Source: Schmidtea nova (taxonomy: Eukaryota). Taken from it: DNA of 63,765 bases. Location of the stretch: contig CM097882.1 in NCBI GenBank assembly GCA_044892505.1, positions 274,350,236-274,414,000 of the forward strand, given 5' to 3'. The notes below the pieces were generated by a model. It was not told where the DNA came from. It saw only the letters and a program-made list of their open reading frames with translations, and did not search any database. The position numbers were made by a program, and so were the translations under genes. Shown here one piece after another: positions 1 through 60,870 of this stretch (the stretch's first letter is position 1; every line of letters starts with the position of its first letter).

Positions 1-1531
1 TTATTAAATTAATTAATAAATAAGTAACAAAATAAGCCTTTGCTGCAAAAACAATTTTATTAAGTGAGAAAATTTTCGATTATAAAATAATCCTCGTCAA
101 TCTCTAATTCGGCAAATAACTGGTATCTTCATTCATTCTGTTGTTTCTTTTTTCGTGATTTCTCTTCCTTTTCATTGGATGTTAATCTGATTAATATAAA
201 TTTTTTAAATTTTTAGTTGTTTTTAAAATGTTTTTTGTAAAAATTTTAAAAATATAAAATAAAAACTCTAAAAATTCTTAAAAACTTTTTCTAAAATTTT
301 TTTCAGAATAAATAAATTTATCCTTTTTTTTTAAAAAATTGAAAATTTTTAAATTTTTCTATTGTCTGTATTCTACACTTTTAATTTTCCAACCCTTTAT
401 ATTTGTATTTTATTTTTTTATTTTAAAATTTAATTATATATCTTTGAAATGCCCGTAAATTCTCTGTACTATCACTTTTCTTTCTCCTTTTCTATGTCTT
501 CCTTTTACTTTTATACTTTCTTCTTTGTAGAACCATATGTTTTTTAAACAAGATAGTAAGTGGGGGATTTCACTAACTTCCTCTTTAGAGTTAATTTTTG
601 GGGGTTTGGCTCTAATGAAAATTGCTTCTTTAAGTCTGGGATATTTTTCGTCGTTTTCGTTTGTCAATATTTTCACTGATATTAATTTTTCCTTATTTTC
701 TGTCTGACATTAGTGAAGAGGTCTCTATACAGATGACTTTCAACCAAAATCAAGATGTTCTTTAATTCTCTGATGCAAAGTCCGAAGTGTGCTTCCGATG
801 TAAATTTCTTTGCATTTATTACACATGATGCTATAGACAATGTTCTTGCGAAAGCATAATTTCTTTGGTGTTTAGCAATCTTCCATCTTACATGTATTTT
901 CCTTTCTCGCGTTGTTAGCTAGAGCTTGCCTTAATGTCTTATATCTATGTGCCAAACGAATAGGAAGGCCAGTGAGATTAAGTTCTTTGATGATCATGAA
1001 ATTTATTCGGTCACTGATGAAAGGAATTCGAAGGTAGAAATATTTCTTTTCCTTTTGTAGGTCTTTCTGCCTTCTCTGGTTGAATTTTACTTTGTTAATC
1101 TGGTTAATATTGCAGGACTTCTGTAAATATCCTTTGTTGTACTGAATTGTCCTCTTCCTTTGTGCATCGATTAGCTATCCTTTGTCTCTCATTTCTAATG
1201 ACGTTTACCTTCTGCAGATGAGGAAGTGCTGATCTTTGGTGCATAAATATTTCTTTGCGGGCTGATTTTTTGTAGAACCCATATGCTGGTGTGTCTGAGT
1301 TTATTTTTATTCTCAGATCTAATAGTTCGAGGGATCCGTCTTCTTTCGGGTATTCAATATCTTAATATTCTCGGAAAGAGCCACACCTTCGAAGGACCCA
1401 GAAACTTTATTAATTTTTCTTTTGATTCATTAGCGAAAATAATTTGTTTGGTTTCAATGCCATATTGTGTCTTCAACACTTCAAATATTCACACAAGTAC
1501 AGAAAATGGAATGCTAAAGACCCTAAGAATA
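1..1531 (-). mobile_element. Penelope-like retroelement remnant (RT C-terminus + GIY-YIG endonuclease + pLTR-type end)
   Basis: Minus-strand translation gives IVYSIMCNKCKEIYIGSTLRTLHQRIKEHL (GIY-YIG, ~750-850), LKEAIFIRAKPPKINSKEE, YLRIPFISDRI and IEYPKEDGSLELLDLRI, with frameshifts and stops. Bases 1-190 recur at ~10130-10330, 14770-14824, 17595-17700 and 42545-42657. Confidence 0.8.
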
Positions 1532-1875
1532 GATTTGTTGGGTCCACCATTTGGTCAACATTTAACGTACAAAACATAATAATAGGAAAACAAATAGGAA
1601 TGAAGAAAATATTAATGTATTTAAATAAATTCCATTGAAAAAGGAATTAAAAGTAATAGAAAGATAAATGATATGGTGAAATCATAAGAAATAAAATTGA
1701 AAATGTTAAAAAGTCATAAGAAATAATATCTAAATAACATAAATTGGTTAACAATAGAATTTAATAGTTAAATTAAGAGAAAAATTAAAGAAATTTTAAG
1801 TTAATTGAAACAAAAAATAAATAGATTTTATTTTTAAAATTTATTATTATTTTGAAATAAAATTGTATTCATTGA

Positions 1876-1932
1876 TGATCAGCTTCACGCTGATTGGTCA
1901 GTGAACTGATCTGATCAGTATAAATACTGATC
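1876..1932 (+). promoter_or_regulatory. LTR promoter: CCAAT box (ATTGG) and TATA box TATAAATA at 1919-1926 inside a palindrome
   Basis: ctgattgg...GATCAGTAT-AA-ATACTGATC. The same arrangement occurs in copy B at ~17175-17250 on the minus strand. Confidence 0.6.
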
Positions 1933-2141
1933 CAGATTCAGATGATTTAAAATGTTAAAATTAACGTTAACTTTTTATGCTTTTATGCTTCAAGAAGTTT
2001 GAACTTTGAATCAACAGAGGTATGGAATTTGATTGTTTTATTATTTTTATATGTAATCTATCATGATTTTTTGATTATTTCTGTCATTGCTATTAATTAA
2101 ATAAATTTTTATGAAGAAATTTTATTATTTGAGATTTGTTT

Positions 2142-2349
2142 GAGCTTCTTCCACTGTGTAATCAGTGGAAGGAGGCAAATGTATTAAATTATTTTATTTG
2201 AAGTTTTATTCATGATTTAATTGAGCTTCTTCCACTGTGTAATCGGTGGAAGGAGGCAAATATATTTAATTGATCTTACATATTACAGTATAGATGTAGA
2301 TTATTATTCAAGGGGGCTCATGTTCATCGTGAAATCGATGAAAGGAGGC
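2142..2349 (+). repeat. Hairpin repeat array A in LTR copy A (2 full units + 1 variant)
   Basis: gagcttcTTCCACTG-TGTAAT-C(A/G)GTGGAAggaggc at 2142 and 2223; variant TTCATCG-TGAAAT-CGATGAA-aggaggc at ~2314-2349. Confidence 0.85.
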
Positions 2350-2763
2350 AGACTGTGCCGAGTAGATAACTGCTCCATACAGTTAGGCCGTCCGACTGGT
2401 ATAAAGTGCCACGAGGGGGGTAGAATTATAATAACCATATTTCTAACAATTTATCACTGGACAGTATAGCCAGTTTAATTTGGTTTTTATGTGAAAACAG
2501 TTTTATTTTTGAACGAAATTTCATCTTTGTCAATAAAGTATTATCATGTTCTTTGCGATTGTCACATCTGGGGTTTGTTCGCATAAAGCGGCTAGTATCA
2601 AATTTAGAAATAAGTGTAGAATGCACATCAGAATGCAAGAATGCAAAAAAAATCAATAACCCTAATAGAGTAGTTTAAGTGGGTCATTGATCTACCACAC
2701 AATAAAACACAATTGATCTGATGCTCAACACAAACTAAATAACATTGAAATTAATCTACTAGG

Positions 2764-2903
2764 CTGATCCCTGTATATAGGGCAGTAATTTCGTAAGATC
2801 TTCGAATTTAAATTGATATCCTGATTGCTGTAGATAGCACAGGCATGAATGAAAGGAAATAAAGTACCAAATGAATTTATCTGATCGCTGTACATAGCGA
2901 CAG
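2764..2903 (+). repeat. Hairpin repeat array B in LTR copy A (3 units, 57-60 nt period)
   Basis: CTGAT-CCC-TGTATATA-GGG-CAG (2764), CTGAT-TGC-TGTAGATA-GCA-CAG (2821), CTGAT-CGC-TGTACATA-GCG-ACAG (2881). Confidence 0.85.
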
Positions 2904-3015
2904 TGTTAAAATATAGAATGTATTTTATTTCTCTTCCTAGTTTTAAATATGAAACGAAATCTGTTAATTCGAATCAGCCGAAAATTATAATTAATGCCAC
3001 CAATTAATTCAGAAA

Positions 3016-3605
3016 ATGTCAAACAACGCAATCAATCTTCAATCCGAATTGGACAAGGCTTGGCGAATCATTCACAGCCTTGAGAAAGAAATATTGAAAA
3101 AATCAGAGAAGCTGAACACAGCAAAAACTACAACCTCTCAATTAAAGAAGAGCTGGTTTAGTCCAGACCAAATGAAGGCCCAGCTCATGAAGAACCAACG
3201 CTCTCAGCGAGCAAATGATGAGTTTAGAACCGAACTCGAAGCCACAAAAATAGAATTGAGAAAATGTTTAAAATCCGTAACAACATCTTTCATCAACAGC
3301 GAATTAAAACAGCTCATACGCCCAATCACGTACCAGCGTTGGTCAGAAGAAAAGTCTGAATGTACTAAAGGAACCAACACGGAAGAGCCATCTCAGGTTC
3401 GAGAAATACAAATTCAAATTGCACCAAAGAATGCAGAAATTTCCGAAAGCAAGAAAAAGAAGAAGAATAAGATGTGCGCAAGACAACACATTGTAAGAAG
3501 CAAGTAATGCAACAGCTGATCCAACATACGAAGGAATTTCCCGAAATCGATTTAACTACGGATTTCTCAGTGGATGATGAGGATTTCCTCAAATATTTTG
3601 AATAA
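3016..3605 (+). pseudogene. LTR-encoded ~196-aa coiled-coil/basic/acidic-tail protein, one -1 frameshift near 3490
   Basis: The 163-aa ORF continues in another frame as KKQVMQQLIQHTKEFPEIDLTTDFSVDDEDFLKYFE* (TAA 3603-3605), matching the C-terminus of copy B. Confidence 0.8.
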
Positions 3606-3696
3606 GAACTTGAAAATTTCTTGTCATTAAGTTTTGTACAAAATTTTAGTTTTATTATATTTTTGTTTTGTGATTATTTTATTATAAAGTATTTGG

Positions 3697-3702
3697 AATA
3701 AA
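3697..3702 (+). terminator. Putative LTR polyadenylation signal AATAAA
   Basis: Lies 90 nt after the ORF stop. The context aaagtatt(t)ggaa(a)taaagtattttattaaaaaattt is conserved in copy B (~15265-15290, minus strand). Confidence 0.5.
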
Positions 3703-4438
3703 GTATTTTATTAAAAAATTTAAAATTAATTAAATGCAAATTATAATTGACAATAGTGTTGATACATATGATTAATAATAAACAATAGGAACAGTAAAGC
3801 GATGATATATTGTAATCTATTGGAATAATTTGTTGATATTGTAAAGAAGGGGGCAGAGGGAAAAATTAAACAGAAAGATAATGTAATGAATAAATTAAAG
3901 TGAAAGTGAAGCGTAAGTCCTTCTATCGGCAGCAGACGAACCCGTGAACATAAATGGGGAGTAGTTTTAGCAATAGAGCTCACCTGCCCATCATTGTTCA
4001 AACACCTTGCACATTTCCAACTCGATTATTCCAGGGAAATAGTCGAGGGTGCTCGTGTGTCACGTAAGCATTTTGTTTTTGGTCTTGGATGGAGGCATCC
4101 CTAGAGCGTTTATTTATTTTCTACTTTTGTTTTAACCCATCCAAACGCCCAACAGATTATTGAAATCTCGAATCAACTAATGAAGACTTGCAATACGTTC
4201 AATGTTTATGAATCACATGCGATTCATGCTTTTATTATGCACATCATTTCAAAATGAACTTTAATGTTGTTTTTATTTACACATAAAGTATTATCTTATA
4301 GAAAAGATTTATGAATATTATTAAATGATATTAGTTTTAAAGAATTAAATCCCCACTAATATCTCCAATATCTTCAATTATATCTCCAAACATAAATGAC
4401 TTTGCCGTTCCACAACCAGATGCTTTTGCTTTTCCAAA

Positions 4439-4561
4439 AATATAGTATATAAACTTACCTGTCTCAAACGTGACGCTACTTACATAGGAGAAACACATAG
4501 AACTAATCGCACACGACTTAATGAACACACTAAAAATAAAACCAGTAATTATTACGAACAC
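4439..4561 (+). pseudogene. Penelope GIY-YIG endonuclease fragment
   Basis: NIVYKLTCLKRDATYIGETHRTNRTRLNEH. Confidence 0.7.
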
Positions 4562-7094
4562 TGGAAGAACTTAATTTTAATCTTATTTTTAATATGCAAT
4601 ATTATTTTCAAAAATTAAATTATTATTTTAATTATATAACATAATGAAGTAAATTAAGCTTTTTTTTCAAAAAAATTGATAAGAAGGCCTTTTAACATTT
4701 CAGTCTAGGGCCTCCTTAAGGGTAAATCCCTGACTGTCGCTCGCGCTGATCAATTATATCCCTGCAAAACGTTATTGTGAACTGTCAATTTCAAATATCG
4801 AGTAAAAAAGAATATGGAGCCTAAAGGGTATCTGTTTGAAATCTAAAAGTAATTATTTTATTATTACTTAATTTTTGTATGGGGTTACCTAATATTTTTT
4901 TATATGGGGGAAGATATTTAGATTTAATGTAGTAAAAGACTTTCAAAGAAAATATTTACTAGTGAAAATAAGAAGTTCAAAACAAATAATTCAAAGAAAT
5001 ATTTTTTAAGCTGCCAAATTTCATAAGTCGCCACAAGGTGTATGGGGACTACACCTCTCATTCGAAGGAAAGCAGAAGGAATTGCCGTATACCGCTATAT
5101 ATTCTCCATTACGGATATTACATTATTATTTGGAAATATATGGAAACATTTAAGACACTAATTTGTGGAAAAAAATAATTTTATTTAAGAAGATCAAAAA
5201 AATTAGAAATGAAAAAGAAATAAAAGCAGTTCAATCACCATTTGACTTGCTATAACTCGGAGTTCTTACATTTCCTCTTCGTGTTACTTTTACGTAATTA
5301 TTTCGTTTTATTAGAATTTTTGGGAATTAATCTTAATTTTGTTTCTGGTTGTCTAATTTTATAGAATATAAAAATCTATGAATCATTAATTTCTAAAAAA
5401 ATTTGTAATTAAAAATCATTTGAATAATGTTCCATTATAATTTGTACGGCACAGAAATTGTTTCCGCCTTTACGGGGTCTCCTCGGGAAAATGATCAGAC
5501 AAACATTTAATTGATGAACTTCATTAAATATCATACTACGATTTTTTGGTGTCCATATATTTTTAAAAAGAAACTTTGATCCATCGACAGTGAGGGTAAG
5601 TTAGGCACCTTAATACCTTCAATCTGGAAACTTGAATTTCCGACTGAATTAATTGCCCATACGATTTTTATATTTCTGCAATTGAAAATTAAAATAGACA
5701 ATTCCTATTTCAATTAAACCTATTAAAATATCCTCTTTACCGAACTACCAACTTTGATTGGAAATGAATAAAAGAAATGAGCGGACTTCAAATAATGACA
5801 TTGTTTCGTGTTTTGTCATTTATCAAACAATAACATAAGAAAAATACATAAATTGAAAAGCTTTTCTTGGAAATCTATCATTTTATTTGATTGATTAATT
5901 TTGTTTCAATTTCCATTGTCGCGCTGAATTGAATGGTTCAGTCAATTTCAATAAAACCTTTTATACTTTATTTGCTCCTCCTTCTTTCAACAATTTATGG
6001 NNNNNNNNNNNNNNNNNNNNNNNNNNNNNNNNNNNNNNNNNNNNNNNNNNNNNNNNNNNNNNNNNNNNNNNNNNNNNNNNNNNNNNNNNNNNNNNNNNNN
6101 NNNNNNNNNNNNNNNNNNNNNNNNNNNNNNNNNNNNNNNNNNNNNNNNNNNNNNNNNNNNNNNNNNNNNNNNNNNNNGTAATGATTTAATAATAGAAAAA
6201 CGCCAACTCAGTCAATTCAACATAAACGCGATATATTTCGATTGTATAACAATCTTCGTCAAGCAACAATCAGGATAATCAATAATAAAACAGAAAATAT
6301 GCTAAATTTAAACAAATTAATCAATAATAATCATCTCCATACTATATCAGAATTTTAATTTAAAAATTTAATTTATTTATTTTTATTTTATCACAAAAAA
6401 ATTTTTAAATTTAATTAAAAAACAAACATTTTACATAGAACAACATACGTATTATTTTTAAAAAATAAAATTTAATTTAATAAAATTTTAACATTCAACA
6501 TAAAATTTACAAATTTAAAAAAAAATTAAAAATTTGTGAGAGCCGTGGTTCAACTCCAAAGTTGGAATTTTAAAATATGATCATTTACTTGATAAACGAC
6601 GAAGTTGTGCGAAGTTTAGCGCAACGGTACAGTGGTTCAGAGGTTAAGAGGTTCAGTGGCAGTGGAAGTACATGTGATAATGGGTTAGTATGTGTGAAGT
6701 GATGATGTAAATGAGTAACCACGTGTATAAGTTAGTACGCGTGTCACAGCATAGCAACTAAAGTTCAATATGTACAGGTCAACTTTGGTCAAAGGTCAAT
6801 AACGATACAACAGCGTCCAAAGGTCAAGTATGATGTAACCAGGGTTAATATTATGTTATTGGGGTCATATATGATGTTATTGTGACCAATTGTTATGTAA
6901 CAATGTTAAATGTAAAGTGAGCGGGGTCTAATATGATGTATTTGTGTAAAGTGTTATGTAATGAGGTCAATCATTTTGTGATATTATTTAATTTATTTTG
7001 TAATAGATGTCAAGTGCCAAATATTTCGTAATCCTTGGGGGTATTGTATCTGACCGGGACACATCCTACTCATATTCCAAAAAATTCTTTCCAC

Positions 7095-7380
7095 ATCTTG
7101 CAAAGTTAGCAGTATGTTCACTAATAAATGTCCAACACCAGTTGGTCTGTGTTCTGAGGTCGTGTATCAATTTTCATATAATGTATGTATTATCACATAC
7201 ATTGGAGAGACTACCCGTCATTTTTGCACTCGAGTTCTTGAGCATTGTTGACTGAATGGATTGGCTAATATTGATGATCATTTTAGGAAATGTATTAGTA
7301 AAAAATAGGTATCTCTGCTCAAGGCATGCTGAAGTTTCTGGTTCTACGAATATTTTGAATGTGTTTAAGTAACTAGGTGT
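7095..7380 (+). pseudogene. Penelope GIY-YIG endonuclease fragment
   Basis: KVSSMFTNKCPTPVGLCSEVVYQFSYNVCIITYIGETTRHFCTRVLEH*, in a different frame from the listed 7007 ORF. Confidence 0.75.
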
Positions 7381-7904
7381 TGCATGTTGTGAATTTTGGA
7401 ATGTTGTGTTTTTGGTATAAGTCGGTTTGTTATAGAGAATATTTTATAAATTTTGTGTTTTAAAAGAAAATATTTTTGTTTTCAATTTCGATAAAAAATT
7501 CAAATTTTCATGTTTTTTTAAAATATACTTTTATAAAAAAAATTATTTGAAAGTTTTGTGTGAAGAATTTATTTTTAAAAATTGAATTTTGATACAATTT
7601 GAAGACGATTATTATTGATTAATTTTTTTGAATATTTCGTTTTATCTATTTATTATTGATAANNNNNNNNNNNNNNNNNNNNNNNNNNNNNNNNNNNNNN
7701 NNNNNNNNNNNNNNNNNNNNNNNNNNNNNNNNNNNNNNNNNNNNNNNNNNNNNNNNNNNNNNNNNNNNNNNNNNNNNNNNNNNNNNNNNNNNNNNNNNNN
7801 NNNNNNNNNNNNNNNNNNNNNNNNNNNNNNNNNNNNNNNNNNNNNNNNNNNNNNNNNNNNNNNNNNNTTTGATCTTTTTTTATTATTATTATCAATAATT
7901 CTCA

Positions 7905-8053
7905 TAATGACTATAGATCAAAATTTTTTTTTATAAACAATAACACAATATTTTGGCACAGCCTTTATCAAGTGTGTATTTCACACTTGATAAAGGCTGT
8001 GCCAAAATATTGTGTTATTGTTTATAAAAAAAAATTTTGATCTATAGTCATTA
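7905..8053. repeat. Perfect 72-bp inverted repeat with 5-nt loop; member of a dispersed palindromic family
   Basis: Arms 7905-7976 and 7982-8053, loop TATTT. Related arms occur at ~18880, 38110-38220, 43070-43190 and 45420-45490. Confidence 0.85.
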
Positions 8054-10129
8054 NNNNNNNNNNNNNNNNNNNNNNNNNNNNNNNNNNNNNNNNNNNNNNN
8101 NNNNNNNNNNNNNNNNNNNNNNNNNNNNNNNNNNNNNNNNNNNNNNNNNNNNNNNNNNNNNNNNNNNNNNNNNNNNNNNNNNNNNNNNNNNNNNNNNNNN
8201 NNNNNNNNNNNNNNNNNNNNNNNNNNNNNNNNNNNNNNNNNNNNNNNNNNNNNNNNNNNNNNNNNNNNNNNNNNNNNNNNNNTATAGCAAGATGTTATTT
8301 TATGGCAACCAAATAACTATTGATGTAACTGATTAGTTACCCGTTGCAAGCAATGTTGGTGCTATAACTAACGGGTGAAAATACTCGCATCAATTGAGCA
8401 CTGCTACAAGAAATGTATTTGCTCGAGTACTTTTTCTGGATTCACGAGCTATCGATAGAAGATCTAAGCTCAATTTTGATGTATGGTCCCTTTCTATTTC
8501 TATTTCGTTCTAATAATTTTTAAATCAGGTTTTAGGTTTTATTTAGGTCCTTTTTTGACCATGTCATTGTTTTTATCTAAAGAAATAAGGTTTACTAAAT
8601 CATGACATCATGGTTTTGGGATATAGGATTTTTAATGAAAATTGATGCGAGAATAATAAGAAAATACAGAGTTTTATGCTAAGATTAATAAACTAAATTA
8701 TTTAGAAAGATGTATTTATTTTTCAAGAAAATTAGTAGAAATTTTAGTTAAGATCAAGTCAGATGTTTTTGCTGACCAGGTTTATTATGCAGCATGCTAC
8801 GCATGAGTAAGTTCAATTCTTAAGGTAATAATTTATAGATTTTATAAGTTGTAATTTTCGATGTTTCAATATTATCAGAATTTCTCAGATTTCCGATCAT
8901 CTCATTGCATCACAAGTATTTCGCATCGATTTATTTTTAGATTTTAACTTCTTCAATTAATATTCACTCGATTTAGATGTATATTTTTATGATCGTCAGA
9001 AATTGTCTTAAATTTTGTTGGAAAAATTATAGGTATTTATTTTATTTGGGGGTCTATTTGACAGCATGGGGTCGGACAGTTGAAGAGAATCCATTCTGCA
9101 CACGTTATCCCACATTGACTACGTGCACTGCAAAAAGCTGGGAATGTCACAGCGAGATTACAGCTCGGAAGGTCTGGAAGATAATAAAATTTAAAAAAAC
9201 AAAAAGATTTGATCATTTTATGTATGCAACATTTTAGACAAATATCGAGAATAGATCGAATTTTGAATCAATGAAGTAATGATATAACATAGACAGCCAG
9301 GGTATGGGACAGTGCCAAATAAAAATAAATTATGATAGACAAAACATCAAACTGGCATACCTAGCATGCTCAGTATGCTACCGTCCCTCCAATAATCTGA
9401 ACAGCAATGCTCACCGATATAGTTTTTCCAAATATTTGATTTCTCAGAATGCTCACTTCTCTCAAACAAGAGTGTCTTCAAAAAATGTTCATGTAAAAAG
9501 TCTTCTTTTTTCAAAAAAAAGTGTTTTTCAAAGTGCTCAACTTTTAGAACAGAGTGTTTAATGACTGAAAATGGCATAACTATATAGATACCATTTTCAG
9601 ACCATTTAATTTAAGTGATGCAGTAAAACAAGTTTTTTATCGTTATTTTTACTTAATTTAATTTATTTTAAAAGTTTTATTTTATTTTTGCTAAAATGAA
9701 TTTATATTTATAAATAAAATTTTATTCTATACTTTAACAAATTTTATTTTTATTAAATTTTTATATTTTACTTAAATTTCAACTACTTAAATTTATTTTT
9801 ACAATTTACTTTTGCATTTTTTACATTTATACTAATAAAATTGAGATAATTATTTATAAAAATTATGAATTTTTTGTTTATTTATTTATTTTATTAGATT
9901 TTCTTGTTAATTTGTTTTGTTTGTGTTTTTTCATGTTTACTTCTTGTATTTGTTTATTTTGCACTTTACTTTTGTTTTAATTAATTTTTACATATGCACT
10001 GTTTATTATTTTTGCTTATCTTGATGTTTTCCTTTAATATTTGAGTATACTTCTTGCATTGTCACTACATGTTATATTTGCATTCACTCACAAATCAATG
10101 AACTTCAGTTTTTACCCAACAATTATAAT

Positions 10130-10870
10130 AAAATGGTGATTTGTTTGTAGCAGCAATAATTAAATATTAAATAAATAATAAATAACAAAATAAGCCTTTT
10201 CTGCAAAATTTCATTTATAAAGTAATACTTGTCAATCTCTAATACAGAATATAATTGGAATCTTCATCGTGTACTGCTATTTCTTTCTCTTGAATTATCT
10301 CTTTTTTTATTGGATGTAAATTTGATTAAAATAAATTTTAACACTTTTCTTTAAAATATAAATCTATAGGGATACCACATCGAGGCTAAAGTAGTAATTG
10401 AATTTGCATGGGTTGTTTTATTTGTTTTATTCAAGTTTCACATGAGGCAGTCACTGCTTTGAATATGGTGTGGTACTTTGTTTAAAAAAGAAGACAAATA
10501 ATCTTGTTTGTTGGACCTTTTTTTATTCGATACAATTGGTCTAATCTTGATCATGGGGCCTTCTTTAGGAGTTTTAATTAAACAGTTAAATTTTGGAAGG
10601 TTGGAAATTTGTGTTATGAAGATTTTGGCAGATTTTTCCCTGATACCTTTATTTTGCCAATTTTTTTGAATGCTTTGTTAATCTTTCCTTTAATGATGTT
10701 TGCTAAAAAGCATTTCATCTCTTGATTTGTATTTGTGTCGTTGAGATGTTTTTAGGCTTCTTCACAATAAAGGAATTTCTAAATTTTAGGTAAAATAATT
10801 TCAAAATTTATATTAATCAGATTTACATCTTATGAAAAAAAGAGATAATTCAAAAGAATGAAACAGCAAT
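10130..10870 (-). mobile_element. Penelope-like RT N-terminal fragment plus pLTR-type end
   Basis: Minus strand gives IRPIVSNKKGPTNK, DYLSSFLNKVPHHIQSS and YFSLDVVSL*. Bases 10130-10330 are homologous to 1-190. Confidence 0.65.
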
Positions 10871-11589
10871 ACACGATGAAGATTCCAGCAATATTCTAAA
10901 TTAGAGATTGATAAGAATTATTTCATAATCCATAATTTTCACTTAATAAATAATTTAATTATTTCATTTATTAAAATAAATAATTTAAATATTAAAATAA
11001 ATAAACGAATTAAATTATAAATATTCCTATTTAATGAATAGAATACATAAGCGTAAAACAAAAATAGTATAAATAGAAGCTGAAAAATCATAAAATTAAC
11101 TTTAATTTTGCTAACGGTCATTGATTTGAAGTTTTCTCGCTTTCCAGCCCACATCGGTATTGGAATTGATCACTCTAGTGGAATGGAATAAGTATGTGTT
11201 ATTGTTTGAATAACTAATAATTCAGAAGTTTTTATGTAATAAATATTTTGAATCTGGTTTTTGGTTAATGCTCTGTATCATTTGATTGTCCTGATTAAAC
11301 TGATCTAGGAAGAGCTCTGACGGCCCTCCGGTTATGAGTTCCTGATCGGGTGGAGAATCTTGAACCGAACAATCTGGTCGAGTCCTCAGATCATTGTTTT
11401 ATTAAATTACACAGATCGATTGGGGAAAAGGTAATAAGGAATGTAATAGAGAATTGAACCAGGATGTATAAGCGGAATGCTATTTAAGATATTTTTGGGA
11501 ATTATTAGGTGCAGATGTTAGATAGAAGAAGCAGAAGCTATAAAAAGTCACGAGTTGATAAAATTTAAATACCTTTGATAGTAAACAGT

Positions 11590-11768
11590 TTCTATCGGCA
11601 ACAGAAACCCGAAAAATCGAATACAATGAGGAGTAGTTTGGCAACTAAGCTCATCTGCTCATCAAAATTTCGCACCACTGTGTACATTACTAACAGATTA
11701 CTAAGGAGTAACTATAGGTATACGAGTAAGGGCGATTTAACAATTTCATAATGGTATATGGGTTAATG
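11590..11768 (+). mobile_element. Diverged fragment of the 3' part of a related long LTR, interrupted by the hAT (resumes 14407-14445)
   Basis: ctatcggcaacagaaacccg...gagtagtttggcaactaagctcatctgctcatc aligns with copy A 3922-3995. After the hAT, ttttaacaacccatgcaca resembles the LTR end. Confidence 0.5.
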
Positions 11769-14398
<2,630 letters not shown>

Positions 14399-14674
14399 GG
14401 TTAATGTAATCCTTAGTAACAACAATTTTTAACAACCCATGCACAAACAATACTGTTGTTTACAAATATGGAAATATTTATAAATTATTCTTAAAAAATA
14501 TTTTTTTTAAAAATCGGGTATTTTAAAATTAATTTATTTAAATTAAAACATAATTTTATTGTTTTAAAAGTTTTTAATATTTTATGTAATTTTATATAAA
14601 TTATCTTTAACAATTATGATAAATTTTTTTTTAAATTGATTATTTTGATTTATATTAGAATCGCTAACTGAAAG

Positions 14675-14715
14675 GCACCTGATGATGAGAAATCGTTTCT
14701 TGAAATATATTGTGC
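14675..14715 (+). ncRNA. Minimal type I hammerhead ribozyme (Penelope type)
   Basis: GCAC-CUGAUGA-U-GAGAAA(UCG)UUUCUU-GAAA-UAUA-UU-GUGC: stem I GCAC/GUGC, both core motifs and a palindromic UAUA replacing stem III. It lies next to the Penelope-associated repeat. Confidence 0.65.
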
Positions 14716-15375
14716 AGAACAAAATTTTGGATTGGCGTTTGTTTTTAATATTATTATTATTTTAACAATAATAAATTAATTAATAAATAAGTAACAAAAT
14801 AAGCCTTTGCTGCAAAAACAATTTTGCTGGAGTATTGGATGGGTTAAAACAAAAATAGAAAATAAACTAAACGCTCTAGGGATTCCTCCGTCCAAGACCT
14901 AACATAAAATGCTTACATATCACACAAGCACCCTCGATCATTTCCCTGTAATAATCGAGTTGGAAATGTGCAAGGTGTTTGAACAATGATGGGCAGGTGA
15001 GCTCTATTGCTAAAACTACTCCCCATTTATGTTCACGGGTTCGTCTTGCTGCCGATATAAGGACTTACGCTTTACCTTTACTTTAATCTATCCGCATTCC
15101 TTATCTTTTAATTCAATTTTTCTTTCAGCCCCCTTCTTTACAATATCAACAGATGATCTTCAATCAATTACAATATGTTATCTCTTTAATGCTCCTATTG
15201 TTTATTATATTTATGTCAATCCTATTGTTAATTATAATGTACATTTAATTTAATTAAATTTTTTAATAAAATACTTTATTTCCAATACTTTATCATGAAA
15301 TAAATACGAAAACAAAAATTATAATCAAACTAAATTTTTATGCACAATTTAATAATACTAAAAATTCTCAAGTCA

Positions 15376-15982
15376 TCATTCAAAATATTTGATAATATCT
15401 TCATCAGTTACTACGAAATCCATTGTCAAATCAATCTCGGGCACTTCCTTTGAGTGTTGGATTAATTGTTGGAGTACTTGCTTTTTCCAGCGACGCTGAC
15501 GCGCGCCCATCTTACTCTTCTTCTTCTTTTTGACCTCTGCAATTGCTACGCTTTTTGGTGTGGTTGATGCTGTCGTTGCTTGAACCCGAGGAGTGTTCAT
15601 CCGTATTCGTTCCTTTTGAACAGCCTGATTTCTCTTCAGCCCAATGCTGATAGGTAATTGGACGGATGAGTTGTTTCAGCTCTTGATTGAGATAAGAAGC
15701 CGTTACCGATTTCAAACACTTCTTCAATTCCATTTTAGTGGCATCGAGTTCCATCTTTAGTTCATCGTTTGCTCGCTGAGAGCGTTGATTTTTGATGATT
15801 TGCGCCTTCATTTGCTCTGGACTAAACCAGCTCTTCTTTAAATTTGATATTGTGAGGTCAGCTTCTTTTATCCTTTCAGATTTTCTCAACATCTCTTTCT
15901 CCAGGCTGCGGATAATGCGCCACGCCTTGTCCAATTCTGTTTGAGGAGTTACTGAGTTGATTGACATTTTTCTAGAATTCAA
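15376..15982 (-). pseudogene. LTR-encoded protein, copy B, one +1 frameshift near 15595
   Basis: ORFs 15512..15982 and 15376..15600 join into one protein homologous to copy A (about 70% identical over the first ~124 aa by hand alignment). Confidence 0.8.
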
Positions 15983-16094
15983 AATGATTTATCAATATGA
16001 ACTTGGGCTTTTGGCTTGAATAACTCTCATAATTTCTACGATTGTTAATTTCTAATTCAGGAAAAGAAATAATATACATATTATAATTTCAACA

Positions 16095-16230
16095 CTGTCG
16101 CTATGTACAGCGATCAGATACATTCACTTGATAATACATTTCATTTATTCACGCCTGTGCTATGTACAGCAATCAGGATAAGGAATTATTAAAATTAACT
16201 AAGATCTACTGCCCTATGTACAGGGTTCAG
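16095..16230 (-). repeat. Hairpin array B in LTR copy B (3 units)
   Basis: Reverse complements read CTGAA-CCC-TGTACATA-GGG-CAG, CTGAT-TGC-TGTACATA-GCA-CAG and CTGAT-CGC-TGTACATA-GCG-ACAG. Confidence 0.85.
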
Positions 16231-16708
16231 GATAAGCAATTATTTTAATTCTCTGTGTTGAATATCTGATCCTTTAGCCTATTGATGGTATTCTACTTGC
16301 GTGGTAGATCACTGAACCACGCTATTAAAGTTATCGATTTTCTTGTTATTTCTCTTGTTCAAAGGTGTATTTTATGCTTAGTTCTAGACTTTATATCTGC
16401 CGCTTTATGCCCACAAACCCCAGATGTGACAATTGAAAAATAGGATACTATTTCGCTAACCAAATGTGAAATCAGATCAATAATAATCACGTCTATTATT
16501 ATCTCAAAATAAATTAAAACTCAAACTTAACTTCAAATTCATAATAATCAAATCTATTATCTTCTCAAAAATCAAACTTCAACTGGTTATACTATCCAGT
16601 GATAAAAACGTTAGAATTCATGGTTAATACAATCCTACCCTCCTCGTGGCGCTTTACACCAGTCGGACGGCCTAACTGTACGGAGCAGTCTTCTACTCGG
16701 CACACTAT

Positions 16709-17000
16709 GCCTCCTTTTCACCGATTTCACGATGTTCAGGAGCCCCTTGAATAATATGTATATATCTACAGTAACTACTCTACATAAATAATATATATTC
16801 GCCTCCGTCCACCGATTACACAGTGGAAGAAGCTCGACCAAAAAATGCTCATAAATAATATAACTCATGCCTAATTATTCACTGAATATAATAATGTTGC
16901 CTCCTTCCACCGATTACACGGTGGAAGAAGCTCAATAAAATATCAATACACGTTTAAATATCTTCGTCTCCTTCCACCGATTACACAGTGGAAGAAGCTT
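16709..17000 (-). repeat. Hairpin array A in LTR copy B (3 full units + 1 variant)
   Basis: gcctccttccaccgattacac(a/g)gtggaagaagctc-type units at 16801, 16899 and 16966; variant at 16709-16745. Confidence 0.85.
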
Positions 17001-19249
17001 AAATAATTCTAAATTCAAAAAATAAATCATATATAAAATTTCATAAATTTTAATTATCTTTACACAATGGTGACAGAAATCATGATTAACATAACAATAA
17101 AAAGAAAATCAAATATACCTTCAAATTGCTGCACAAAATTTTCAAGATTTTAACAGTAAAATTTTATCGTAATTATCTGAATCTGGATCAGTATTTATAC
17201 TGACCAGATCAAATTTTGAACCAATCAGCTTGAAGCTGATCATCAGACCAATACAAATAATAAATTTTATTAAAAAATAAAATCGATTTATTTTGTTTTA
17301 AATAGCTAACTTTTCTTGTTTTGATTTCTAGAATTTTATTAATTCTTTTTTCTTTATTACTTATTTATTTCACTTTCTTTTTATTTAAATATAATTACAT
17401 ATCATTCTTCTTAACACTTTTGACAGTTTCAATTCTATTTCTTCTAATTCTTTTAATATTCTTAATATCTTTTAATACTTTTAATTCATTTTTTCTGAAA
17501 TTTCTCGTAATTATATTAATATTAATTTATTCCTATTTATTTCTTAATGTTATTATTTTTACATCTAACTGTTGACCAAATGGTGGATCCAACAATTTTC
17601 TCACTTAATAAAATTGTTTTTGCAGCAAAGGCTTATTTTGTTACTTATTTATTAATTTATTTAATACTTAATGCTGCTACCAAGGAATCACCATTTTATA
17701 CTATAACAATAATAAAAATAATAATAATTATTATTAAATAATTATTAAATATCAAAATAAGCCTTTCCTGGAAAATTTTCACATAATAAAAAAATTTGCA
17801 GAAAAGACTTATTTTGTTAATTATTATTTATTTAATATTTAATTAATGCTGCTACCAAGAAATCATCATTTTATATTATTATTATTTTTATTAATATTAT
17901 TATTAAAATTATGAATAAAATTTTCTCATAAAATATTAAAATTTATGACCAATGTAAAATGCATTGTGGGTATACACTCCAACACATATTGTAGAAATTT
18001 GTTTTTCATTATACATGGATATTAAAATTATACGTTTATTAAAATTACAAATAAACAGATAATTTTGAGTGGTTTTAATTTAAATATCTGATTTGCAGCG
18101 GAAGCATATACTATCTGAAAAATATTTAGAACCATTAATTTAGTTATTTAAAAATAGTTTATAAATAAAATCAATTCTTTTATGAATTTCGGATGACTGT
18201 TTGATTAAAATAAAGTTTTGTTAATTGTTAAACATTAGACTATATAAAATAGCAAACACACATACATACTCTAACACAACACGCACCCCAGCTGTCCCAA
18301 AACAATTTCAAAGGAGACTCGACTGGGCTCGACAGTTTCCTTATATATACAGTCTTTAACAATTATGTTGAGATTCCTAGAATCTAAATTTGATGATTCG
18401 TATATAAAAAACACAAATCCTGCTTACTAAGTTTTATTTATCTATTACAATATTTTACAAGCTGATAAAAATTACCTTTTCATAAAAATGAAATTTTTAA
18501 CAATATATATGTATATATACACTCGTGTTTATAAGTGTTATGTAAGTGAATGCAGTGTTCTGACCTAGGATGTGTAAACTTTGCATGCTCTAATTTATTT
18601 TACAAATGTCGTCTACCGAAATTGTAGCTCTTCTTAGATTATAAGATTTAGGGAGTTATTTAACTGAAAAATCAGTCAGTTTATATACTAATTTTTAAAG
18701 CACTTAATCTGCCAATAATGATTGTTATTTTTCTACTTCAGTTGATTGAAATTGTTTTCAAAACAGAATTGTTTTTAACCTTGGAATTATTTCATTTTGC
18801 TGACTTTGTAGGTCATAAATATAATTTATTTAAACAAACAGTAATTTATTTATTTTAGTTTATTTAAACAATCAGTATTAATACACACTTGATAAAGGCT
18901 GCACCTAAATATTGTGTACTTATTTAAAGAAATTTTGATCAATAGTCAAATCAATGGGAATAATTGATATTAATATTTTATTTTTATTATTATTTTTAGT
19001 AATATTGCTATAATTTATTTTTTTTGAATTAAAACATAAATCAAAATATAAACCATTTTACAAATAGTTAAAAAAATTAATTTACATAAAATATTTTCAA
19101 AACGAAATATTCTTTTAAAATCACATAAAATTTTATCATTAATTGTGTCCACCGCCATAAGATAAAAAAATGTCAATAAATGTTCACAAGATCACAAATT
19201 GTAAATTGATAAATTATCATAATTATATTGTCAAAAATTAAATTATCAT

Positions 19250-19700
19250 TCGATCCATTGTATGATCTTGATTGCCGTCCACATATACATTATTCTATAT
19301 TTTAATTCCTCTTCTGTAGTCACCTTTAATTTTGAATGTGTCGAATATTCTTGCTGCATCTAACAATTATATGCTTGGGTTGGGTCAATAAGTCACTGGA
19401 TTCAATTCCGGATGAAATCGAGTTTCTTACATGGTACTAAGTTTAAAAAGCTTCTGGCACTGGAAATCGCATCGAATACTACAACAAGATTTTATTTTAA
19501 TCAGTAAGTTAACCAAATCCAAAAACCAAAGGAAGATTTATTTATGATCATTTGGTTCAAATACTTGTAACACCTTTAGATTGGAAATGTGGAATGAATA
19601 GAGTCAGACCAGTTTAATAACTATGGAGATATACCAAATTACCATCAGAATGAACTGATTTGTCAAATTCTCATGGTAAATGTTCATGATCACATTGAAT
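19250..19700 (-). pseudogene. Possible Tc1/IS630-type DDE transposase remnant
   Basis: Minus-strand FHPELNPV and EEELKYRIMYMW resemble the DDE_3 C-terminal motif, but the sequence is highly degenerate. Confidence 0.3.
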
Positions 19701-19973
19701 CTGAAATAATCAAGTATTATAATTAATTTTTTCATTAAATTTATATAAATATCCTTATAATAGCTGTACTATCTCGGCAATAATTATAGGGACAGTTAGT
19801 TAAAAATGCAAAGAAAAAAAGGCAATGAATTATTTAATGAAATAACAAATACTGATTAAAATAGTGAAAACAGTGGGATAAATTAATATTTGGTAGGAAA
19901 ACAATACAATAATTTCCATATTGATTTTTGTAAGACTCTAAATTAAAAATAATTTTTTATTTGGTACAAAATA

Positions 19974-21134
19974 AGTAGTAGGAAGTGAGCCCGCCAGATA
20001 TAGGTCAAGACCCCCCCCCTAGAAAATTTTTTTTATGTAGGTCAAATTTATGTAGGTCAATTTAAGGTCAAATTTTTTGCTTAAGGACACTTTAAGGACA
20101 CTTTAAGGACACTTTAAGGTCAAATTTTTTGCTTAAGGTCACTTTGAGGACACTTTAAGGTCAAAAAAGTAGGTCAAGGTCGTTTCAGGGACACTTTAAG
20201 GTGAGTTTAAGGTCAAATTTATGGTTTAAGGACACTTTAAGGACAAAAAAGTAGGTCAAGGTCGTTTTAAGGACACTATAAGGTCAAAAAGAATGCCAAT
20301 TTAAGGTCACGATAAGGACAAATTAAGTAGGTCAAATATTTTTAAGGTGAATTTAAGGTTAAAATAAGTAGGTCAAATATAATTTTCAAATTTTTTCTAT
20401 GTCAGAAAAAAGTAGGTCAAATATTTTTAAGTTGCTATGACAACGAATAAGTAGGTCAACTTTATTTTTTCAAAATTTGGTAGTTGCTATGACAACGAAT
20501 TAAGTAGGTCAATAATAATTTTGAAAATTTTTCTATGTCAGAATTAAGTAGGTCAAATATAAAAACTTAAAAATTTTTTTATGTCAGAAAAAAGTAGGTC
20601 AACTTTATTTTTTCAAATATTTTTCTATGTCAAAAATAAGTAGGTCAACTTTATTTTTTCAAAAATTTTTCTATGTCAGAAAAAAGTAGGTCACGAAAAT
20701 TTTTCTATGTCAGAAAAAAGTAGGTCTCAAAAATATTTCTATGTCAGAAATAAGTAGGTCAACTTTATTTTTATAAAAATTTTCCTGTGTCAGAATTAAG
20801 TAGGTCAAATATAAAATTATTCAAAGTTATAATATATTTAAAATATTTTCTATGTCGGAATTAAGTAGGTCAATTTAAGGTCAATGTGAGGACGAAATAA
20901 GTAGGTCAATTTAAGGTCAAGGTGAGGACAAATTAAGTAGGTCAATAATAATAATTTCTAAAATTTTTTCTATGTAAAAATATAAGTAGGTTAATAATAA
21001 ATTTCGAAATTTTTCAAAGTCAGAATTAAGGGTACATTCAGGGTACTATAAGGTCAACAAAGTAGGTAAAATATATTTTTTCTGTCAGAAAAAAGTAGGT
21101 CACGAACAATTTTTCTATGTCAGAAATAAGTAGG
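19974..21134 (+). repeat. Left terminal inverted repeat, rich in AAGTAGGTCA and TTAAGG(T/A)CA units
   Basis: Reverse complement of ~36990-38108; roughly 20 GTAGGTCA-type motifs by eye. Confidence 0.93.
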
Positions 21135-21674
21135 NNNNNNNNNNNNNNNNNNNNNNNNNNNNNNNNNNNNNNNNNNNNNNNNNNNNNNNNNNNNNNNNNN
21201 NNNNNNNNNNNNNNNNNNNNNNNNNNNNNNNNNNNNNNNNNNNNNNNNNNNNNNNNNNNNNNNNNNNNNNNNNNNNNNNNNNNNNNNNNNNNNNNNNNNN
21301 NNNNNNNNNNNNNNNNNNNNNNNNNNNNNNNNNNNNNNNNNNNNNNNNNNNNNNNNNNNNNNNNNNNNNNNNNNNNNNNNNNNNNNNNNNNNNNNNNNNN
21401 NNNNNNNNNNNNNNNNNNNNNNNNNNNNNNNNNNNNNNNNNNNNNNNNNNNNNNNNNNNNNNNNNNNNNNNNNNNNNNNNNNNNNNNNNNNNNNNNNNNN
21501 NNNNNNNNNNNNNNNNNNNNNNNNNNNNNNNNNNNNNNNNNNNNNNNNNNNNNNNNNNNNNNNNNNNNNNNNNNNNNNNNNNNNNNNNNNNNNNNNATCT
21601 TATAAAAAATGGAACAATCAAAAACTAAAATTTAAATTACTAACATTTATTAAATAACATTTATAAAATAACAT

Positions 21675-22142
21675 TTATGCATATCGTGCACTGTCAATTC
21701 TCCAAATTGGAGTTATAACATCTTTTGTATCTACTTTATAACCCTGAATAATTATATTAATGAACCAGTGTTCTTGATCCTTGTATTCGATTGATTGGAA
21801 TGCATCATGAAAACGAGTTTTTCTGTTGTTGATGTATATTGTTTCTTTGCAACTTAAATTTTTATTGATTTTCAATAAAATTTTATTTAGTGCAACAACA
21901 TCTTCTTTAGATATATTTGCAGCTAAACTGTCATACAATGATTTTGTTAATTTAACCGGATACAATAATCTAAAAGGTATTTCTTCTACCAAGAAATAAA
22001 TTTTATAGTCATAATACATTTGGACTGGTTTGACTTCTGTCTTGATTTTTCTTTTAATTCCTTCTTTCTTGTTTTCTTCCCCATTGATTGGGTTGTTAAA
22101 AATATTATCATAAGTAGGAAAATTTTCTTTGTAAGATTGCAT
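21675..22142 (-). CDS. Polinton accessory protein, 155 aa; possibly a ssDNA-binding OB-fold
   Basis: Intact ORF with a TATAAATA about 45 nt upstream. The C-terminal WFINIIIQGYKVDTKDVITPIWRIDSARY pattern is reminiscent of viral SSBs (inference). Confidence 0.6.
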   Translation of the reverse strand: MQSYKENFPTYDNIFNNPINGEENKKEGIKRKIKTEVKPVQMYYDYKIYFLVEEIPFRLLYPVKLTKSLYDSLAANISKEDVVALNKILLKINKNLSCKETIYINNRKTRFHDAFQSIEYKDQEHWFINIIIQGYKVDTKDVITPIWRIDSARYA

Positions 22143-22688
22143 TTTAATAATTGTGACATTATCTAAAAAATAGCTTTGTATTTATAGTCATGAGTTTATG
22201 TCTTTGTCCAATGAAAATGAAGCATTCACATTGTGTGTTATGGATGTGTGTATGTTATGCGTGTGTGTATGTCTTTGTTACATGTTTTTTGTCGAATGTG
22301 TGTATGTCTTTGTTACATGTTTTTGTCACATGTGTATCTTTGTCACATGTGTATCTTTGTCACATGTATTAAATAATTGATCATGTGTGCGTATTTTTAT
22401 TTAGTTAAATGTTTTATTTAATGTCTTTATTTAAAATGTTTATGTATTTAGTTAATATTTATATTTCTTTATAAGTCAAATTGTTTTAATAATGAAAACC
22501 TCTATATTAAGAAAAACATTACTATTTAAAAAAAATAAACTAAAACCTGAACTTTAATATAAATTTATAAACAAACTAAAATACTAATACTAATAAATTT
22601 ATTAAATGAAAACTAAAAAAGGTAATTATAACACACAAAAACATAAATAATAACAATAAAAATAACATAAAACATAAAATATATACAA

Positions 22689-23210
22689 TTATTTCTGTGG
22701 TGATGATTGATTGCAATCTATCATTTCACGATTGCATTCTTCGTAATCTGGAAGATCATCGGTAATCTTGCGATGACATTCCTCACAATTAGGTGATTCT
22801 GGCGAATCGCCGCATTGTGACAATTTATCACATTGAATCGATTCGTCTGTAGGACCCGAACAATCAGCGGATCCATTGTAATCAGGAGTACTATTGGGCC
22901 ATATTTTAGGTTCTTCTTCTTCTTTTGAGGATTCTAATTCGAATCTTTTTAGTTCCGTCCGCAAAATCCATATACAGAACCTCTCAATTCGGTCAGTACA
23001 ATGACCGCATTGATAGGCACACAGGATGTGCTCGGCCATGAAAGGGATTTCGACATTTAGATTTGCGAGGTGGTCCAGCAATATTTGATTAATATCTATT
23101 CCCGTAATACACTGGATCTTATACGGGAGTAGTTCCGGTGCTGTGTAAGTCAGCTGCGTCATCAAATTGGGGAATATTTCTTCCAGTTTTCTGTATAATA
23201 CAGCCATCAT
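22689..23210 (-). CDS. Polinton orphan protein, 173 aa, Cys-containing with acidic C-terminal half
   Basis: Intact ORF (CAYQCGHC; CEECH). A possible upstream ATG micro-exon with a GTAAAT...AG intron lies at ~23211-23263. Two CCAAT boxes at ~23372 and ~23426. Confidence 0.6.
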   Translation of the reverse strand: MMAVLYRKLEEIFPNLMTQLTYTAPELLPYKIQCITGIDINQILLDHLANLNVEIPFMAEHILCAYQCGHCTDRIERFCIWILRTELKRFELESSKEEEEPKIWPNSTPDYNGSADCSGPTDESIQCDKLSQCGDSPESPNCEECHRKITDDLPDYEECNREMIDCNQSSPQK

Positions 23211-23457
23211 CTTTTCTAAAAAAGTAAATTATAAAAAATGTAAACAAGTAATTTTTTAATTTACCATTTTTGAGTTTTGTCGATGTGAGACTCATTTTAG
23301 ATATAAATTATCACAAAATGTTCATGGTACGATAGTAACACACACAACATATATGAAATAATACACACATAACCAATCAGATTCGAGTGCACGTAATATG
23401 TCTTTATCTGATAAATACATACACAGCCAATCAGAATCGTGCATTACTATTGTAGGT

Positions 23458-23943
23458 TTATTGCAAACATGAGTCACATGATAATAAAAAATCTAAAAAG
23501 TCTTTATCTTCAATAATTGATTTTATATCGATAATAATACTATCAACTATATTATAATAATCCCTATTTTTTAACCCTAATATCACTACTTTACCGCTTG
23601 CAAATATATTAACACACATAGGATTATATTTTATATATCTCAAAGCTGGAAATATTTCTGGCTCGTAAACACAATCCATTAATTTAGCTAAAACATTTAA
23701 ATTACAACTAAATCCCAAGTCTACCGTTACAGTAATTGATTGTATTTTTAAATCATAAATCTTTATTTTTTCATCACTAATAAATTCCTTGCATCCCATT
23801 ATTCTAAATCTTCCGGTCTTAAAAAATATTATCGGGTACTTACCACTTCTATCAATAATTTGCTGCGGTTTCCCCTTTGGGAAATTCAAGTGAGATACAT
23901 CAGTTTTACCCTTATAATTTATGTTGCTAATCATTACTTTCAT
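23458..23943 (-). CDS. TATA-binding protein (TBP)-like protein, 161 aa
   Basis: Two TBP repeats: ISNINY...IIFFKTGRFRIMGCK and KIQSITVTVDLGFSCNLNVLA...YEPEIFPALRY...NIFASGKVVILGLK, compared with canonical KIQN...YEPELFPGLIY...LIFVSGKVVLTGAK. Confidence 0.88.
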   Translation of the reverse strand: MKVMISNINYKGKTDVSHLNFPKGKPQQIIDRSGKYPIIFFKTGRFRIMGCKEFISDEKIKIYDLKIQSITVTVDLGFSCNLNVLAKLMDCVYEPEIFPALRYIKYNPMCVNIFASGKVVILGLKNRDYYNIVDSIIIDIKSIIEDKDFLDFLLSCDSCLQ

Positions 23944-24030
23944 GAATATTTTTTAAATATGAGAACTGTAATGAAAACTATTATTTAAAACAAATATAAA
24001 CAATAATACTAAAATAATAAAATAAAAAAT

Positions 24031-24654: not shown

Positions 24655-24674
24655 CTGGATGTATATTATCAATC

Positions 24675-25215: not shown

Positions 25216-25270
25216 ACAATGGGACAATCGTTGCCTAATCTTAATTTAAACTTTAAATCTTCTTGTTGTA

Positions 25271-53084: not shown

Positions 53085-53086
53085 TA

Positions 53087-60299: not shown

Positions 60300-60870
60300 G
60301 CTTAGGAATATCAGGTATAACCATCAATCACGTTGTTATTGTTCGAGAAAAACGAGAAAGAAGTATCCAGGAGAGAGAGAGAGAGAGAATGAGCAGATAA
60401 AACTCCAGATCACCAGGTTGTCAATAGGAAGCACTAAACTGCAGCGTAAATTATTTACCCCCGAACAGATGAAGCCCCAAATCATGCGTACCGAACGAGC
60501 CAAGCGTGCAACATCTGAGGTCCAAAAAGAGCTGGACGCTGTGAAGATAGAATTGAGCAACTTTCTTAATAAGGTAACGGGGTCATACATCGAATCCAAA
60601 CTGCGGTTGTGCATCTGGCCTTCGATTATCAACATTGGACGGAAGTCGAGAGAACCAAACAACTGGTTGGAACTGATACGTCTGAATTACTCGCGGAACT
60701 GCCTTTCCTCCCGAAAGCCTCAGTACAAAATAGAAGTGTTTCCATAAGCGGCTCAAAGAGAAAGCGTATCGGATCTAAACGCCGAAAGCAGAAGAAGGCA
60801 TGGGCGCAACATCTAACGTCTCGAACGATCGCTTAAGGGATTTAGTCGAACTAGATCTGTTAGCAGAGAT
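60300..60870 (+). pseudogene. Third, diverged homologue of the LTR-encoded protein, frameshifted
   Basis: FTPEQMKPQIMRTERAKRA..E...ELDAVKIEL...VT.S; after the shift DYQHWTE...GTDTSE...KRKRIGSKRRKQKK. Confidence 0.75.

Follow-up and report, generated by a model that had tools for sequence, protein, structure and literature searches.

A cluster of three short bulged hairpins, each with a match to the Pumilio response element (PRE; consensus UGUANAUA) at its top, recurs in two giant solo LTRs, L1 and L2, within a 63,765-nt stretch of the Schmidtea nova genome (hereafter, the window). Comparing the two copies points to a real, selected, and apparently undescribed cis-element, the ligand of which is plausibly Pumilio. 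We propose that a host PUF protein, gated by the weak hairpins, controls the translation or stability of the accessory-gene RNA and the genomic RNA, a reading to which we give roughly an even chance.

Two Giant Solo LTRs

The array lies inside two LTR copies with the following landmarks (window positions; landmarks after the first two refer to L1):

1536..4154, plus strand: solo LTR L1, 2619 bp, TG..CA ends, 7-bp terminal inverted repeat, 4-bp TSD GATT
17594..14825, minus strand: solo LTR L2, 2770 bp, TG..CA ends, 4-bp TSD (ATTT on the plus strand)
1868..1945, plus strand: conserved palindromic block with the TATAAA at 1919, a putative promoter
3697..3702, plus strand: candidate poly(A) signal AATAAA, conserved, ~90 nt after the ORF stop
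3890..4110, plus strand: best-conserved LTR block, structured, with a donor-like GTAAGT at 3913

L1 and L2 are ~72% identical and lie in opposite orientations. Both have the ends typical of integrase-mediated insertion, i.e., TG..CA, a 7-bp inverted repeat (with one mismatch in L2), and a 4-bp TSD; L2 inserted into the center of a palindromic MITE. An earlier sequence-only reading of this DNA had treated them as ‘both LTRs’ of one element, a view that we reject because the orientations are opposite and the TSDs separate: they are two independent solo LTRs. No PBS or PPT was seen in the inspected flanks of L1 or L2, and the internal region of the family is absent from the 63,765-nt window. A gag element at 62891 was considered as that internal region and set aside: its LTR is a different, short one, and as far as BLAST shows, it does not belong to this family. 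Except for one position in L2, the ends match TGTTRNR..YNYAACA, a pattern described for LTR ends in the available text of PMC3601003; together with the TSD length, they suggest a Ty3/gypsy family. A Ginger DNA transposon was also considered and rejected, the inverted repeat being only 7 bp and the ORF lacking an integrase domain, whereas Ginger elements have 40–270 bp TIRs and an integrase-like transposase (passages of PMC2836005).

The sense-strand order of TATAAA (1919) followed by AATAAA (3697) is kept in both LTRs, and the TATAAA at 1919 is the only one common to the two. Two layouts are candidates: a long R beginning near 1950, or a U3 with a promoter and gene of its own, in which case the genomic RNA would start close to the poly(A) signal. 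In either layout, the hairpin array would fall both in the 5′ leader of the accessory mRNA and near the 3′ end of the genomic RNA. The block at 3890–4110 carries changes consistent with G.U pairing on the plus strand, among them those in a hairpin at 4021–4047. The conserved AATAAA in L1 can itself be folded into a weak hairpin (3677–3716, −7.0 kcal/mol), and the donor-like GTAAGT lies 216 nt downstream of it, an arrangement reminiscent of retroviral poly(A)-site control.

The LTR-Encoded Accessory Gene

Each LTR contains an ORF, of which the window holds a third, decayed relative:

3016..3605, plus strand: accessory ORF of L1, ATG at 3016, frameshift near the 3′ end (~3485–3490)
15376..15967, minus strand: accessory ORF of L2, frameshift elsewhere (~15590)
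60430..60621, plus strand: decayed homologue of the LTR ORF, 44% over 64 aa

Over 126 shared codons, pS is 0.66 and pN 0.15, giving a dN/dS of ~0.10, although the corrected dS is near saturation and hence unreliable; the 35 tail codons behave alike (0.66 synonymous, 0.13 nonsynonymous). Purifying selection at this level (dN/dS ~0.1) argues that the ORF encodes a real protein, in which a disordered linker, a Lys/Arg patch, and an acidic tail accompany two long helices. The AlphaFold model shows two helices, with a pTM of 0.30. In both copies, the tail reads IDLT followed by acidic and aromatic residues (~3540–3602; 15379–15440, minus strand), which we take to resemble a SUMO-interacting or activation motif. 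By eye, the protein carries no clear export signal.

Database searches returned no RNA-binding domain or homologue among Pfam, protein, and PDB entries. Pfam had no match for the L1 ORF, one sub-threshold match for the L2 ORF, and no integrase domain for either. In a search of 5.8 billion proteins, limited to near lengths, none of 22 candidates was confirmed with the single protein and none of 686 with a three-row alignment. PDB sequences gave one match, at E 0.96, and the Atlas matches were bacterial with a recognition score below the reliability line. A match in the representative library to a 4261-aa coiled-coil/ankyrin protein (E 2.8e-4) was discarded as a match of coiled coils; none of the Pfam hits of that protein is an RT domain. 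Upstream of the third ORF copy, the hairpin array is missing, and a lone UGUANAUA tops a hairpin at 60140.

Architecture and Predicted Fold of the Hairpin Array

We refer to the PRE-bearing hairpins as class B, to tell them apart from a second hairpin family described below. The six units are:

2764-2785, plus strand: class B hairpin 1 of L1, 2-nt bulge, motif UGUAUAUA at 2772-2779
2820-2843, plus strand: class B hairpin 2 of L1, motif UGUAGAUA at 2829-2836, G at N5
2881-2903, plus strand: class B hairpin 3 of L1, single bulged A, motif UGUACAUA at 2889-2896
16230-16209, minus strand: class B hairpin 1 of L2, AA bulge, motif UGUACAUA
16177-16154, minus strand: class B hairpin 2 of L2, motif UGUACAUA
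16117-16095, minus strand: class B hairpin 3 of L2, motif UGUACAUA, 135 nt before the ORF ATG

Hairpin 3 of L1 sits 120 nt before its ORF ATG. Much of what had been claimed about this array is borne out: all six units are located, including the paralogous set in L2; the loop 8-mers are TGTATATA, TGTAGATA, and, four times, TGTACATA; the spacing, claimed as 54–60 nt, measures 57 and 60 nt in L1 and 54 and 59 nt in L2; and the upper stems CCC/GGG, UGC/GCA, and CGC/GCG are recovered. The AU/AA bulge supposed to be common to all units fails in unit 3, which carries one additional A and is predicted to fold with a 1-nt bulged A. The fold also contradicts the idea that the motif is presented as an open loop. 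In the prediction, U1 pairs with A8 (P = 0.97) and G2 with U7 (P = 0.70–0.71), leaving a UANA tetraloop. These two pairs come with the UGUANAUA sequence itself and are invariant, which means that they give no sign of selection for burying the motif.

The units are weak, with predicted energies of −6.2 to −8.4 kcal/mol, and the 147-nt array is no more stable than its shuffles (z of −0.11 and −0.01). By itself, TGTANATA is common in this AT-rich window, with 31 matches versus a shuffle mean of 21.1, a count attained by 1 of 100 shuffles. A stem-bulge-stem descriptor with TGTANATA at the top selects 6 of the 609 window sites of the same architecture, exactly the six units, where 300 local dinucleotide shuffles average 0.11 such sites and never exceed 2; since the descriptor was written post hoc from units that are homologous, this test shows only that they form a repeat family. 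A covariance model built from the six units found no seventh member in the window, the next best score being 16 bits against 38–47 for the training units. At the gathering threshold, Rfam gave no match over the array in 1–20000 or 2100–3020. Comparison with the motifs of the IRE, Roquin CDE/ADE, Smaug SRE, and K-turn/SECIS led us to drop each of them on inspection.

Selection, Covariation, and Strand

Between L1 and L2, the class B units are identical in 68 of 71 columns. In spacers and flanks, the figure is 95 of 122 when gapped columns are left out (Fisher p = 7.6e-4) and 95 of 148 when they are counted. The comparison covers two LTR copies with three paralogous units each. The units are under strong purifying selection, because they retain this identity while the synonymous sites of the ORF differ at 66%. 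Only three differences separate the orthologous units: one in the bulge and two in the loop, the latter both at N5. The stem covariation that had been proposed is real but thin. Paired double changes do occur, but at two of the five upper-stem pairs only, with one event each. Both events lie among the three paralogues; orthologous units show none. Upper-stem pairing is kept in 30 of 30 cells among the paralogues.

The strand is harder to read from the class B units themselves, which fold about equally on either one (differences of 0.1–0.8 kcal/mol). Neighboring elements are more informative. Upstream of class B, both LTRs carry a second family of hairpins, class A, which the sequence-only reading of this array had left unmentioned, followed by a GC-richer block:

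2145..2255, plus strand: class A array of L1, two 12-bp hairpins (2145-2174 and 2226-2255) with an open hexaloop UGUAAU
16803..16997, minus strand: class A array of L2, three 12-bp hairpins with the loop UGUAAU
2300..2470, plus strand: conserved GC-richer multi-hairpin block of L1 (L2 counterpart at ~16760-16580)

The class A hairpins are five nearly identical copies of −18 to −22 kcal/mol, and one of their stem pairs occurs as U-A, U.G, and C-G across the five. Such G.U-consistent changes in the neighbors (class A and the hairpin at 4021–4047), together with a bias of conserved TGTA toward the sense strand (10 versus 2 on the antisense strand), support an RNA element on the sense strand. In the block at 2300–2470, a conserved irregular stem-loop shows internal loops of the tandem G.A type, a hairpin capped by AAA, and a double change from A-U to G-C. 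The block has no Rfam match, was dropped as a hammerhead, HDV, twister, pistol, or xrRNA on inspection of their motifs, and may act as a domain of the IRES, export, or nuclease-resistance type.

Match to the Pumilio Element and Its Accessibility

All six loops match UGUANAUA, as had been claimed, but only five match UGUAHAUA, a stricter form given in the available text of PMC11162807; unit 2 of L1 fails it because of its G at N5. The seven fixed PRE positions are invariant in all six units, confirming that the N position alone varies. That both loop substitutions fall at N5 has a p of 0.016–0.06, depending on how many positions are deemed free, and a G at +1 is present in 6/6 units; this pattern reflects three paralogues in two copies each, and the conservation of G(+1) is confounded, because the same base is the closing-pair partner. 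N5 is the position at which PUM2 does not discriminate, and a G at +1 gives the tightest PUM2 binding, according to passages of 10.1101/403006. The chance of a stem top reading TGTANATA is roughly 0.0003–0.002 per motif, rising to ~0.05 once 30 known motifs are allowed for. With its seven fixed positions, its substitutions at N5, and its G(+1), the match of class B to a Pumilio element is hard to dismiss.

Accessibility is the main difficulty. PUM1/2 recognize RNA in its single-stranded form, and their binding in vitro is weaker when the RNA is structured (available text of 10.1101/403006, 10.1101/571588, and PMC6521599), yet section 16 of 10.1101/403006 reports PUM2 occupancy in cells to be unchanged by predicted structure up to ~4 kcal/mol. 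Under the 8-nt constraint used for that figure, freeing the motif here has a computed cost of 2.2–2.3 kcal/mol; opening one flanking nucleotide on each side as well raises it to 5.8–6.5 kcal/mol, about 10^4-fold. Location bears on the question too: ~90% of the strongest PUM2 sites are in 3′ UTRs (10.1101/403006, in part), and the class B array precedes the accessory AUG while probably also lying in the 3′ end of the genomic RNA. As Pumilio can also stabilize an mRNA (a passage of PMC8948244), the sign of any regulation could go either way. The sequence-only reading had proposed an RNA element that recruits a PUF protein and/or the LTR-encoded basic protein. A selected sense-strand element, a PRE match, and a real basic protein encoded nearby all speak for it; the motif, however, is half buried rather than exposed.

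Proposed Mechanism and Alternative Readers

The array would act as a multivalent control element in the RNA of a giant LTR, within which an accessory gene is also encoded. It is on the strand of the ORF, 120–250 nt upstream of the accessory AUG, and would lie in the 5′ leader of an LTR-internal mRNA running from the TATA box at 1919 to the AATAAA at 3697; in the 3′ LTR of a full-length element, it would belong to the untranslated 3′ end of the genomic RNA. Each unit would cap a Pumilio element and its G(+1) on a weak bulged stem, which a host PUF would melt at the top upon binding, so that the hairpins act as a threshold gate, responsive only where PUF is abundant, as it would be in germline or stem cells. 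Binding would then repress or time the translation and turnover of accessory and genomic RNAs, while the invariant CUG-A bulge and lower stem are perhaps read by a second factor in the closed state. Against PUF gating, the stems are conserved in sequence, a feature that PUF binding does not need; one unit has a G at N5, the class A loops have UGUA yet do not form PREs, and the distant third copy of the ORF has no such array.

Conservation of the stems is what a different reader would explain. The folded hairpins may be recognized by a non-PUF protein, most attractively the basic coiled-coil protein of the LTR itself, in a Tat/Rec/Rev-like feedback on export, splicing, or its own translation, with the PRE match a coincidence; we consider this rather unlikely, though it is the main rival. 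It accounts for the invariance of the stem sequences and of the bulged A, for the covariation in the stems, and for the presence of both hairpin classes: one reader would recognize UGUA-AU in class A, and in class B the same bases around a flipped-out N (UGUA-N-AU). Since the class A loop shares UGUA and AU with the PRE and lacks the N and the final A, class A hairpins are not Pumilio sites, and they are the best evidence for a possible other reader common to both classes. The selected LTR ORF, with its Lys/Arg patch and long helices, fits such a role, and the available text of PMC11379458 gives a precedent in HERV-K, where the structured RcRE in U3 is bound by the accessory protein Rec. Yet this reader demands a seven-base PRE coincidence along with variation confined to N5 and a G(+1), and the LTR protein has neither a detected RNA-binding domain nor a homologue in the searches above, a model of two helices only (pTM 0.30), and a third gene copy that lacks the array. 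PUF gating and a structure-specific reader can coexist. In a combined form, which we hold unlikely, the LTR would be a self-contained regulatory gene, made of a promoter, two UGUA-hairpin arrays, a poly(A) site, and a basic coiled-coil protein for which no homologue was found, and its bulged hairpins would be two-state, closed by the LTR protein at the bulge and opened by host Pumilio at the top. If true, a Tat/Rev-like feedback loop would be wired to a stem-cell or germline translational regulator and would be active even from solo LTRs.

Other explanations dispense with both proteins. UGUA is common to all 11 hairpins and fully unpaired in class A, and CFIm25/68 has UGUA specificity; recruitment of this host 3′-end and export factor could tune LTR poly(A) use or the export of unspliced RNA, and AATAAA and GTAAGT are both conserved downstream. 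We find this improbable, as the arrays are 800–1550 nt upstream of AATAAA, which is far beyond the usual CFIm range, the invariant AUA is left unexplained, and open-licence PMC and bioRxiv text, as far as it is available, yielded no such case. The near-equal folding of class B on either strand and the array z-score of ~0 would suit imperfect DNA palindromes bound by dimeric transcription factors as an enhancer array, with folding incidental, and U3 regions do carry repeated factor sites. Two double-sided changes that keep pairing across an asymmetric bulge, and G.U-consistent changes of the neighbors on the sense strand only, make this distinctly improbable. Repeated small hairpins also serve packaging or dimerization in retroviruses, and those here could do so through UGUACA kissing loops (the palindrome is present in 4 of 6 units) or Gag binding to the repeated tetraloop hairpins. 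Such a role is very improbable: unit 2 of L1 (UGUAGA) is unable to self-pair, the UG lies in the stem, and a long distance separates the array from the structured 3′ block, at which a leader would be expected to start.

Relation to Known Systems

The Pumilio motif is already known, as are LTR RNA elements with accessory proteins in retroviruses. The Pumilio response element and PRE arrays such as the NORAD repeats share with class B the 8-mer with its free position 5 and preferred G(+1), and the clustering of repeated sites. In the available text of PMC4947167, the PREs and stem-loops of NORAD are listed as separate repeat motifs, whereas here each site caps a bulged stem that covaries, and the array belongs to a mobile element and precedes an AUG. 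The Rec/RcRE pair of HERV-K resembles the present case in combining structured LTR RNA with a small accessory protein; there is no sequence similarity, the RcRE is a 433-nt element in U3 (PMC11379458, in part) as opposed to short repeated hairpins, and the ORF described here is wholly within the LTR, between its own TATA and AATAAA. Proteins of the Rev/Rec type combine an Arg-rich RNA-binding motif, oligomerization helices, and an export signal, and bind an element in the viral RNA; the Lys/Arg patch and long helices may make the LTR protein a candidate of this type. HTLV Rex/RxRE and MMTV Rem and Sag are comparable systems of LTR RNA or accessory protein.

A likeness to TAR had also been drawn. 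TAR lies at the transcript start, and the Tat/TAR pair is lentiviral. The class B units share with it a bulge a few bp below a 6-nt loop, a basic protein nearby, and possibly a division between a bulge reader and a loop reader. The TAR-like placement does not hold, as the array is ~850 nt downstream of the only conserved TATA box rather than at the predicted transcript start, and it further differs from TAR in being triple, in its purine-first bulge and its loop, and in having no Rfam match.

Kilobase-scale LTRs are themselves familiar from Osvaldo, Ulysses, and Woot. Long-LTR Ty3/gypsy elements such as plant Ogre (1.9–6.5 kb) and planarian Burro also have TGTTRNR..YNYAACA-type ends, but the extra ORFs described for them are in the internal region, in contrast to the ORF inside the LTR here (passages of PMC3601003 and PMC6431247). 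Open-licence PMC and bioRxiv text, available mostly as titles and the starts of abstracts, yielded no published case of PREs on covarying bulged stems in a giant LTR, so that triplicate PRE hairpins in such an LTR with an orphan protein are apparently undescribed.

Retrotransposons need germline or stem-cell activity to spread, and their known targeting is mostly transcriptional. If the PUF reading is true, a PRE array in an LTR would be a post-transcriptional cell-type sensor and a natural test of the use of hairpin-capped sites by PUF proteins. Because the LTR holds a whole accessory gene, every solo LTR is potentially an expressed gene acting in trans.

Other Elements in the Window

A Maverick/Polinton at 19974–38108 has ~830-bp TIRs and matches to an ATPase, an integrase, a capsid-like protein, and a C5 protease; an ORF that it carries at 23458–23952 (minus strand) matches one repeat of the TATA-binding-protein domain (Pfam TBP, E 1e-15). 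A separate short-LTR element at 62506–63765 has a PBS-like motif (62700) and, starting at 62891, a gag-like ORF, for which a protein database search matched 0 of 865 candidates. Just after the third copy of the LTR ORF lies an inverted short-LTR relative (60898–61398, minus strand) with a possible 6-bp TSD containing one mismatch, and upstream of that copy, a MITE at 58867–59740 is inserted in TATA-like sequence with an 8–9 bp target duplication. Transposon remains are found at 430–1500 (minus), 4400–4615, 11982–13835 (minus), 49682–50434 (minus), and 52142–53131 (minus). They include a decayed Penelope-like element around L1, with a GIY-YIG match, a hAT-like transposase that has no Pfam match and appears intact by eye, and Tc5/pogo and mariner fragments.
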